64,000 nucleotides of DNA, taken from contig VGIR01000002.1 in the NCBI GenBank assembly GCA_016867815.1, forward strand, positions 912 to 64,911, read 5' to 3'. A program made the translations under genes and the position numbers. The notes under the pieces are model-generated. The model ran no database searches and was not told the origin of the DNA. It saw nothing but the letters and a program-made list of their open reading frames with translations. The stretch comes from a candidate division WOR-3 bacterium. Lineage in GTDB: Bacteria; Hydrothermota; Tepidihabitantia; Tepidihabitantales; Tepidihabitantaceae. Shown in pieces: positions 24,771-26,406 of the stretch (its first letter is position 1; each line of letters starts with the position of its first letter).

Positions 24771-26308
24771 TGGAGGGTTTGATCCTGGCTCAGGACTAGC
24801 GCTGGCGGTGTGTCTTAGACATGCAAGTCGGGCGGGATACATTGTTGTAGCAATACAGTGGTGTGTTTAGCGGCGAACGGGTGAGCAATACAAGGGCAAC
24901 CATCCCTCAGGAGGGGCACAACCCACCGAAAGGTGGGCTAATACCCCATGTTCTGCGGCGGAGGCATCTCTGCCGCAGCAAAGGCGCCGCAAGGTGCCGC
25001 CTCTGGACGGGCTCTTGTCCTATCAGCTTGATGGCGGGGTAACGGCCCACCATGGCAACGACGGGTAGCCGGCGTGAGAGCGTGACCGGCCACAGGGGAA
25101 CTGCGATACGGTCCCCACTCCTACGGGAGGCAGCAGTCTAGAAATTTGGGCAATGGGCGAAAGCCTGACCCAGCGACACCGCGTGGAGGATGAAGTCTTT
25201 CGGGATGTAAACTCCTGACAGGCGGAGCGATGCCGTTCCGGAGTAACTGCCGGAACGGTGACGGTACTGCCAAAGGAAGCCCCGGCTAACTACGTGCCAG
25301 CAGCCGCGGTAATACGTAGGGGGCAAGCGCTGTCCGGATTTACTGGGCGTAAAGGGTGTGCAGGCGGACTGGCGTGTCGATGGTGAAAGCTCCCGGCTTA
25401 ACCGGGAAAGTGCTGTCGAAACTACCAGCCTTGAGGACGGAAGAGGAAACTGGAACTTCTGGTGTAGCGGTAAAATGCGTAGATATCAGAAGGAACGCCG
25501 ATAGCGAAGGCAGGTTTCTGGGACGTTCCTGACGCTGAAACACGAAAGCTAGGGGAGCAAACAGGATTAGATACCCTGGTAGTCCTAGCTGTAAACGATG
25601 TACATTAGGCGTGGGGATTTTCCCCGTGCCGGAGCCAACGCGTTAAATGTACCGCCTGGGGACTACGGCCGCAAGGTTGAAACTCAAAGGAATTGACGGG
25701 GACCCGCACAAGCGGTGGAGGATGTGGTTCAATTCGATGCTACGCGAAGAACCTTACCTGGGCTTGACATGCAGGTAGTAGTGACCCGAAAGGGAAGCGA
25801 CCGGGGTTTACCCTGGAGCCTGCACAGGTGCTGCATGGCTGTCGTCAGCTCGTGCCGTGAGGTGTATGGTTAAGTCCCGCAACGAGCGCAACCCCTGCCC
25901 CTAGTTGCAAACCCGCGAGGGTGCACTCTAGGGGGACTGCCTCCGTCAAGGAGGAGGAAGGTGGGGATAACGTCAAGTCATCATGGTCCTTATGCCCAGG
26001 GCTACACACGTCCTACAGTGGCCGTTACAATGGGATGCTACATCGCGAGGTGATGCCAATCCTGTAAAAGCGGCCATGGTTCGGATTGCAGGCTGCAACT
26101 CGCCTGCATGAAGATGGAATCGCTAGTAATCACTGATCAGCATGCAGTGGTGAATACGTTCCCGGGTCTTGTACACACCGCCCGTCACGCCATGGGAGTC
26201 GGCAATGCCCAAAGTCCCTCTTTACGAGGGCCTAAGGCAGGGCCGATGACTGGGGCGAAGTCGTAACAAGGTAGCCGTACGGGAACGTGCGGCTGGATCA
26301 CCTCCTTT
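24771..26308 (+). rRNA. rrs: 16S ribosomal RNA
   Basis: Universal blocks are present: ...GGTTTGATCCTGGCTCAG, GTGCCAGCAGCCGCGGTAATAC, GGATTAGATACCCTGGTAGTCC, GCATGGCTGTCGTCAGCTCGTG, ACACACCGCCCGTCACGCCATGG, and a 3' GGATCACCTCCTTTCT. The length is about 1.54 kb. Confidence 0.95.
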
Positions 26309-26368
26309 CTACGAGTTTTGCACGAACCCGGGCACGCTTTTTGTCGTTACATCCAATTCTGAAAGATT

Positions 26369-26396
26369 GAAGGCCAAACGGCCTTCTTTCTTTTTG
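26369..26396 (+). terminator. Intrinsic terminator directly downstream of 16S rRNA; possibly bidirectional with rsmG
   Basis: A 7-bp stem (GAAGGCC / GGCCTTC) around an AAAC loop is followed by TTTCTTTTTG. Confidence 0.5.
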
Positions 26397-26406
26397 CGGG
26401 CAGTTC

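Follow-up and report, generated by a model that had tools for sequence, protein, structure and literature searches.

A stand-alone 16S rRNA gene with a predicted promoter, leader-trailer helix and terminator of its own in a clade of candidate division WOR-3 bacteria

We examined a 64-kb stretch of DNA (contig VGIR01000002.1 of assembly GCA_016867815.1; the whole stretch is called the window) from a candidate division WOR-3 bacterium, in which a 16S ribosomal RNA (rRNA) gene occurs without the other genes of an rRNA operon. The gene predicted here from the sequence alone is indeed a full-length 16S gene (Table 1), and the start first proposed for it, at 24771, lies 4 nt inside the start given by Rfam. 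It carries the 530-loop target sequence of the methyltransferase RsmG, GTGCCAGCAGCCGCGGTAA, and every one of the genomes nearest to ours in RsmG sequence, at 72-77% amino-acid identity, carries the label candidate division WOR-3. Across the 64 kb, Rfam and ARAGORN returned a single further RNA gene, the transfer RNA (tRNA) gene tRNA-Val(tac), located upstream of groES. No 23S or 5S gene scored above the Rfam gathering threshold in the window, a blastn search of the window with three 23S and one 5S queries from other phyla gave no match, and no spacer tRNA was detected in the 64 kb by either Rfam or ARAGORN. These searches bear out the claim of the original prediction that neither tRNA-Ile/Ala in an internal transcribed spacer (ITS) nor a 23S gene follows downstream. 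Any 23S gene must therefore lie beyond 37.7 kb downstream or beyond 24.8 kb upstream of the 16S. Where a canonical rrn operon has same-strand tRNA-Ile and/or tRNA-Ala and then the 23S after the 16S, this locus has a terminator and a convergent protein-coding gene. Genes for 16S and 23S are called unlinked when more than 1500 bp lie between them (Brewer et al., bioRxiv 10.1101/705046); on this definition the complete 16S described here is unlinked, in line with the organisation that had been proposed for it, and the trait is kept within its clade.

The intrinsic terminator begins 60 nt past the 3' end of the 16S, and its hairpin folds at -11.3 kcal/mol when taken alone. The number of terminators in the surrounding 4-kb region was at chance level (4 observed vs 3.1 expected) and the 3' flank folded by itself reached a z-score of only -1.3, so that support for this element is comparative and not thermodynamic. 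Among relatives with at least 89.6% 16S identity, a hairpin followed by a T-tract was present 53-66 nt after GGATCACCTCCTT in all 29 distinct trailers, with stems that covary (GGCC/GGCC, GGCTC/GAGCC, GGCG(T)/(A)CGCC) and loops that drift between 3 and 11 nt. Because both its position and its structure are conserved across relatives, the hairpin is more than a chance occurrence, and the combination of a covarying stem, a variable loop and a fixed position argues that the structure is maintained by selection. Of the elements of the unit, only the terminator would be out of place after the 16S of a linked operon. In clades at 81-85% 16S identity the corresponding place is taken by GC-rich hairpins with T-tracts that are unrelated to this one, and linked operons recovered in the same scan have no hairpin and T-tract past the 16S and run directly into tRNA genes. 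The terminator originally placed about 60 bp after the 16S is thus upheld by scan, fold and comparative conservation.

At the other end of the gene, a predicted sigma-70-type promoter precedes a boxA-like motif and the leader strand of a helix. The TTGACA hexamer is invariant in relatives, and in two contigs from other species (L007 and L010) near-identity with the window starts exactly there, the DNA upstream being poorly conserved; distant clades also show an equivalent TTGACA...TATAAT-like pair. The boxA-like motif is invariant in all relatives save for one T/C position. The pattern [CT]TCTTT[GA]A[ACT]AA was found in 37 of 38 leaders at 16S identities of at least 89.5%, and variants of it follow TTGACA/TATAAT in almost all other clades recovered. 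The boxA of E. coli is TGCTCTTTAACAA, with which the WOR-3 motif agrees at 9 of 13 positions. A second promoter-like site (24654-24682) was judged spurious, its -10 hexamer falling within the boxA-like motif, and a repeat between the promoter spacer and the terminator (I5, 24628-24642 vs 26376-26390) was taken as chance, as it is not conserved in L007. About 100 nt before the -35 hexamer, the window, L007 and L010 share without change the block TTGCGACCCCT (24521-24533), set in otherwise diverged intergenic DNA; a regulator might bind there, or the block might act as an UP-like element.

The leader can pair with the trailer across the whole 16S gene, 24685-24693 with 26346-26354 and 24696-24716 with 26320-26340, to form a helix of 9 + 21 bp. 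The inner arm was detected as a 21-nt inverted repeat (I1) with 90% complementarity, in which 21 of 21 positions pair when G-U is counted. Cofolding of leader and trailer gave -54.6 kcal/mol vs -20.5 +/- 2.7 kcal/mol with shuffled trailers, a difference of 12 standard deviations in favour of the native pair, and the 9 + 21 bp helix was recovered in the RNAalifold consensus of 19 leader and trailer pairs. In this set we found one compensatory double change from G-C to A-U (L091), one pair lost from both strands in six sequences, a U-G/U-A polymorphism in a 10:9 ratio and almost no broken pairs; the helix has been kept, and purifying selection acts on it. E. coli cannot make active 30S subunits unless leader and trailer form a helix of more than 17 bp, and its boxA is placed directly before the leader strand (PMC10250234); the 9 + 21 bp flanking the mature 16S here exceed that length. 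The WOR-3 unit thus shares with the E. coli rrn leader the order of promoter, boxA-like motif and leader strand of a helix that pairs with a trailer immediately after the 16S. The two differ in what comes next: the E. coli trailer leads on to spacer tRNAs, a second boxA and the 23S, whereas the WOR-3 trailer reaches an intrinsic terminator within 15 nt.

The arrangement was followed in relatives by scanning metagenomes with a 20-mer from the 5' end of the 16S, which gave 120 loci in which 16S, 23S, RsmG and GroEL were located by Rfam and BLAST. For linkage, a contig was counted as informative if the 3' end of its 16S was complete and was followed by 1500 nt or more of sequence. A same-strand 23S was absent from all 11 informative contigs at 16S identities of 97% or more, from the 10 at 89-97% and from the 13 at 80-89%, that is, it was found downstream in 0 of 34 contigs at 80% identity or above, and 14 more contigs that extend 100-1499 nt past the 16S showed no 23S either. 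At 70-80% identity, 4 of 8 informative contigs had a same-strand 23S, in the canonical order 16S-tRNA-tRNA-23S(-5S); since these four were found, the approach is able to recover linked operons. Five linked operons whose 16S are 77-78% identical to ours (L130, L096, L060, L108 and L139) resemble the window in their TTGACA/TATAAT promoter and in having a boxA-like motif in the leader, but differ from it in consisting of 16S, two tRNAs and 23S, plus 5S where the contig reaches it (L060 and L096). The stand-alone layout is therefore ancestral to a broad clade and not peculiar to this genome. Altogether, these results indicate that the locus is, very probably, a genuine stand-alone 16S transcription unit with unlinked rRNA genes, a layout that goes back to a deep ancestor of this WOR-3-related clade.

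It is unlikely that this 16S is instead an extra, orphan copy in a mixed genome that keeps a canonical linked 16S-23S-5S operon elsewhere. Mixed genomes have been described (Brewer et al., bioRxiv 10.1101/705046), only 64 kb of this genome is in view, and linked copies, being longer repeats that assemble more poorly, could bias a survey such as ours. The scan did, however, recover assembled linked operons, albeit in more distant taxa, and found none among the 34 informative contigs or the 14 shorter ones of closer relatives. In addition, the copy in the window has all the marks of a gene in use, namely a full-length and high-scoring 16S with conserved promoter, boxA, helix and terminator, and strong conservation of linkage status has been reported both within species and within clades (bioRxiv 10.1101/705046).

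Several of the more distant loci were of interest in their own right. In L074 (FWPV01000554.1, 16S 81% identical), as in the window, the 16S is not co-transcribed with a 23S, but here the 16S (-) and 23S (+) genes lie head-to-head at 3029-6183, 1046 nt apart, where the window has no 23S at all. Both genes come with a TTGACA-type promoter-like site and a boxA-like motif of their own, which makes this a divergent and not a dispersed form of unlinking. In another unlinked lineage, with 16S about 76% identical (L047, L027 and L041), the 16S trailer is followed by a TTGACA/TATAAT promoter and an open reading frame (ORF) starting MVKIRLTR; by reading of its sequence this looks like rpsP, for ribosomal protein S16, which would place the 16S beside a gene for a 30S protein. 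In L065 (16S 80.8% identical), the first gene past the solitary 16S has, by reading of its translation, a P-loop GVGLGKTHLL and looks like dnaA, which would place the rRNA gene by a probable replication origin.

Table 1. The 16S unit and its neighbours, in window coordinates.
Feature	Position	Strand	Remarks
tRNA-Val(tac)	21584..21657	+	ARAGORN and Rfam; upstream end of the conserved syntenic block; not a spacer tRNA
groES	21929..22225	+	Cpn10 called in L018-L020
groEL	22238..23893	+	TIGR02348, 826 bits
Small Zn-ribbon (Zn_ribbon_8) ORF	24020..24280	+	Pfam PF09723, 1.1e-14; between groEL and the 16S promoter; called in L018-L020
Predicted sigma-70-type promoter of the 16S	24626..24653	+	-35 TTGACA 24626-24631, 16-nt spacer, -10 TATCCT 24648-24653; 10/12 matches in scan
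boxA-like antitermination motif	24670..24681	+	GTTCTTTGATAA; 17 nt after the -10; motif match only
Helix, leader strand	24685..24716	+	GGATGTAAC 24685-24693; AAAGCGTGCTCGGGTTTGTGC 24696-24716
16S rRNA gene, complete	24767..26308	+	Rfam RF00177, model positions 1-1533, 1473 bits, not truncated
Helix, trailer strand	26320..26354	+	GCACGAACCCGGGCACGCTTT 26320-26340; GTTACATCC 26346-26354
Intrinsic terminator	26369..26395	+	Stem GAAGGCC/GGCCTTC (26369-26386; 7 bp, 5 GC), loop AAAC (4 nt), T-tract TTTCTTTTT
rsmG (16S rRNA m7G527 methyltransferase)	26407..27081	-	TIGR00138, 148.3 bits (cut-off 99.5); Pfam GidB PF02527, 5.9e-45; last gene of a three-gene operon
YhaM-like OB-fold and HD-domain protein (putative 3'-5' exoribonuclease)	27089..28042	-	PF01966, PF01336; 8 nt upstream of rsmG
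PorV/PorQ-family outer-membrane protein	28067..28969	-	NF033709, 140 bits (cut-off 90); first gene of the operon

The gene that faces the 16S is rsmG, as originally proposed: the convergent frame ending at 26407 has both an equivalog-level TIGR00138 match and a Pfam match. It closes an operon that starts with a PorV/PorQ-family gene and from which yebC-ruvCAB diverges. The middle gene encodes a YhaM-like protein that scored 203 bits against NF010007 (YhaM), under the equivalog cut-off of 460. The mix of a PorV/PorQ-family (type IX secretion-associated) protein, a YhaM-like nuclease and RsmG is an odd one, and it persists in relatives whose 16S is about 90% identical or more. Four closer relatives have another gene downstream of the 16S, and all four keep the terminator. 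In L037 (97.9% 16S identity), a 405-aa ORF lies in the place of rsmG directly after the conserved terminator, 158-1375 nt past the 16S; from an N-terminal zinc-finger-like CPECG motif read in its translation, it is a probable ISL3-type transposase. In L070 (98.6%), translation of the ORF in that place reads a Fic-type motif, HPFRDGNGR, and in L089 and L023 (both 93%) the place is taken by another, uncharacterised ORF.

That a 16S gene should lie next to the gene for the enzyme that methylates its own product had been noted as a curiosity in the original prediction. A functional coupling would mean that the convergent pairing of 16S with rsmG and the YhaM-like exoribonuclease is under selection, whether to have modification and trimming enzymes made near the site of 16S synthesis or through transcriptional interference via a shared terminator. 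Of the 21 informative contigs with at least 89.6% 16S identity, 18 have the convergent rsmG. The T-tract ends only about 10 nt short of the rsmG stop codon, and the flanks of the hairpin, one A-rich and one T-rich, are paired in the manner of a bidirectional terminator; the element may also stop the rsmG operon. The minus-strand tail of the hairpin, however, fails the rule of the terminator scan in this window, and convergent genes cannot be co-transcribed. Moreover, rsmG is replaced in the four closer relatives described above, the pairing is found in no contig below 89.6% identity, clades at 80-85% identity have unrelated downstream genes, and distant RsmG loci (L013-L017) have no rRNA gene within 10 kb. 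We consider such a coupling very unlikely; the adjacency is real and appears to be inherited gene order within one subclade, it gives way to other genes even in some close relatives, and a curiosity it remains.

Upstream, the gene order reads aldehyde dehydrogenase (-), sulfatase-like (-), then tRNA-Val, groES, groEL, the Zn-ribbon ORF and the 16S, all on the plus strand, up to the minus-strand rsmG/yhaM-like/porQ operon. The tRNA-Val(tac) gene was also found upstream of groES in L007, L010 and L040. A groEL gene lies upstream of the 16S in 14 of 14 informative contigs at 97% identity or more, in 10 of 16 at 89-97% and in 5 of 18 at 80-89%. The tRNA-Val-groES-groEL-(Zn-ribbon ORF) block is thus conserved more deeply than the rsmG adjacency, groEL being upstream even at 82% identity (L040, L122 and L140).

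The region is a hard spot for assemblers: independent short-read contigs often break in the 16S gene or at its edge, and L002, L003 and L005 get no further than 20-27 nt into it from the 3' side. Both junctions are nonetheless reproduced in independent assemblies from other samples. An exact-protein look-up with RsmG retrieved six contigs (L001-L006, from three Joint Genome Institute (JGI) samples and three Logan SRA runs) that are 100% identical to the window and span the rsmG operon, the terminator and the trailer, and enter the 16S up to position 25660. GroEL, used in the same way, retrieved three contigs (L018-L020) that are 99.9-100% identical, of which L018 and L020 cross the promoter and leader into the 16S, to 25737 and 26126, and L019 ends at 24371, before the promoter. 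The two sets overlap inside the 16S, as do L020 and L001, which come from one sample. The JGI samples that gave identical contigs (Ga01941xx) are presumably Lake Tanganyika metagenomes, to judge also from the title 'K_DeepCast' of L015. In other species, the whole block from tRNA-Val, groES, groEL and 16S to the opposite-strand rsmG, yhaM-like and porQ genes is held in one contig in L007, which is from Lac Pavin, and in L010; their 16S is 98% identical to that of the window and their flanking DNA only 74-87%. At least nine further single metagenome contigs (L052, L076, L094, L117, L136, L104, L120, L048 and L091) show synteny over the whole locus. Between this reproduction of both junctions, at least 11 contigs of other species with groEL-16S-rsmG in one piece, a trailer that pairs and covaries with the leader of the same locus as no chimera would, and a GC content that dips to 0.58 over the 16S, as is typical of rRNA genes in GC-rich genomes, with flanks agreeing at 0.62-0.64 in a window of 0.60-0.66, the chance that a 23S with its spacer tRNAs was collapsed here, or that the conserved 3' end of the 16S bridged two unrelated contigs, is negligible, and the mis-join that the original prediction had thought worth checking is excluded.

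The rest of the window is ordinary chromosome. Two paralogous outer-membrane proteins with CarboxypepD_reg and OmpA domains (708-2660 and 9590-11359, both on the minus strand) flank an RND efflux operon (3440-8896), and a Tad/Flp pilus locus occupies 47210-56791. An unusual chaperone-like cluster lies at 40178-45658 (-) plus 39281-40171; it comprises an Hsp70-like protein of 679 aa, matched only in its N-terminal ATPase domain, a VWA-domain protein of 437 aa with a C-terminal GrpE-like segment and a double-AAA Cdc48-like ATPase of 723 aa, with a TPR protein adjacent.

From the order and conservation of these elements, and by analogy with E. coli, we propose the following sequence of events for the stand-alone unit. 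Transcription would start at the sigma-70-type promoter, about 110 nt before the 5' end of the mature 16S, and the boxA-like element of the nascent leader would recruit Nus factors. The leader would then pair with the trailer across the whole 16S to form the 30-bp helix (9 + 21 bp), which would bookend the precursor for folding and endonucleolytic release. RNA polymerase would halt at the intrinsic terminator, 60 nt beyond the 3' end of the mature 16S and just short of the stop codon of the convergent operon. Use of the promoter, binding of Nus factors at the boxA-like motif, cleavage of the helix and the enzyme responsible for it, and termination are all inferred in this scheme from sequence, conservation and the E. 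coli precedent.

Some observations weigh against a stand-alone and exclusively unlinked 16S. The terminator scan saw no clear terminator in the DNA that separates groEL and the Zn-ribbon ORF from the 16S promoter, so that some read-through from upstream is possible, and at the other end a polymerase modified for antitermination might in part pass the terminator into antisense rsmG. To call the genome exclusively unlinked is to extrapolate from a 64-kb window that does not include its 23S-5S locus. Lastly, the continuity of the locus rests on overlapping contigs and on other species, as no lone independent contig at 100% identity spans the entire 16S.

The stand-alone unit can also be placed in a broader history, to which we give about even chances. 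Loss of linkage would be ancient and essentially universal in the WOR-3 radiation, extending to every sampled lineage at 80% 16S identity or more; the unit would have kept its promoter, boxA and helix and gained a dedicated terminator, stayed by groESL in much of the clade and, in one subclade, come to lie back-to-back with the operon for the methyltransferase and putative exoribonuclease, possibly for function. Such a universal loss of linkage in WOR-3 has not been documented previously. Our literature search found no paper connecting WOR-3 with unlinked rRNA genes or with rRNA operon layout, WOR-3 is not named in the paper of Brewer et al. (bioRxiv 10.1101/705046), and the part of its supplementary file that was available contains no mention of WOR-3, TA06 or Hydrothermae.

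The layout itself is well documented in many bacteria. One survey found unlinked genes in 52% of its phyla and put their share of soil taxa at up to 41%, with examples in Deinococcus-Thermus, Planctomycetes, Dehalococcoidia, Patescibacteria and Ca. Udaeobacter (Brewer et al., bioRxiv 10.1101/705046), and the original prediction, in restricting the arrangement to a minority of bacterial lineages, undersold its frequency. In that study unlinked status is strongly conserved within clades and goes with slow growth, a low rRNA copy number and, often, the loss of RNase III. The WOR-3 case resembles those taxa in having a 16S more than 1500 bp from any 23S, in the conservation of the trait in a coherent clade, and in belonging to a free-living, environmental organism whose 16S is probably single-copy. 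It departs from the reported link with RNase III loss, as the WOR-3 unit retains a long leader-trailer helix that is under selection; no rnc gene was found among the approximately 60 ORFs of the window that were scanned.

We regard the locus as a further lineage example, tidy rather than surprising, and in our appraisal the stand-alone WOR-3 16S neither opens a new question nor settles an old one. It does have practical consequences: profiling based on 16S-ITS-23S long amplicons or on whole operons will miss this lineage, and genomes of this kind will be marked incomplete by binning or annotation pipelines that look for an rrn operon. For the biology of the group, it adds a well-resolved, clade-wide case to the free-living bacteria with unlinked rRNA genes, and it shows that unlinking need not accompany loss of the leader-trailer processing helix.

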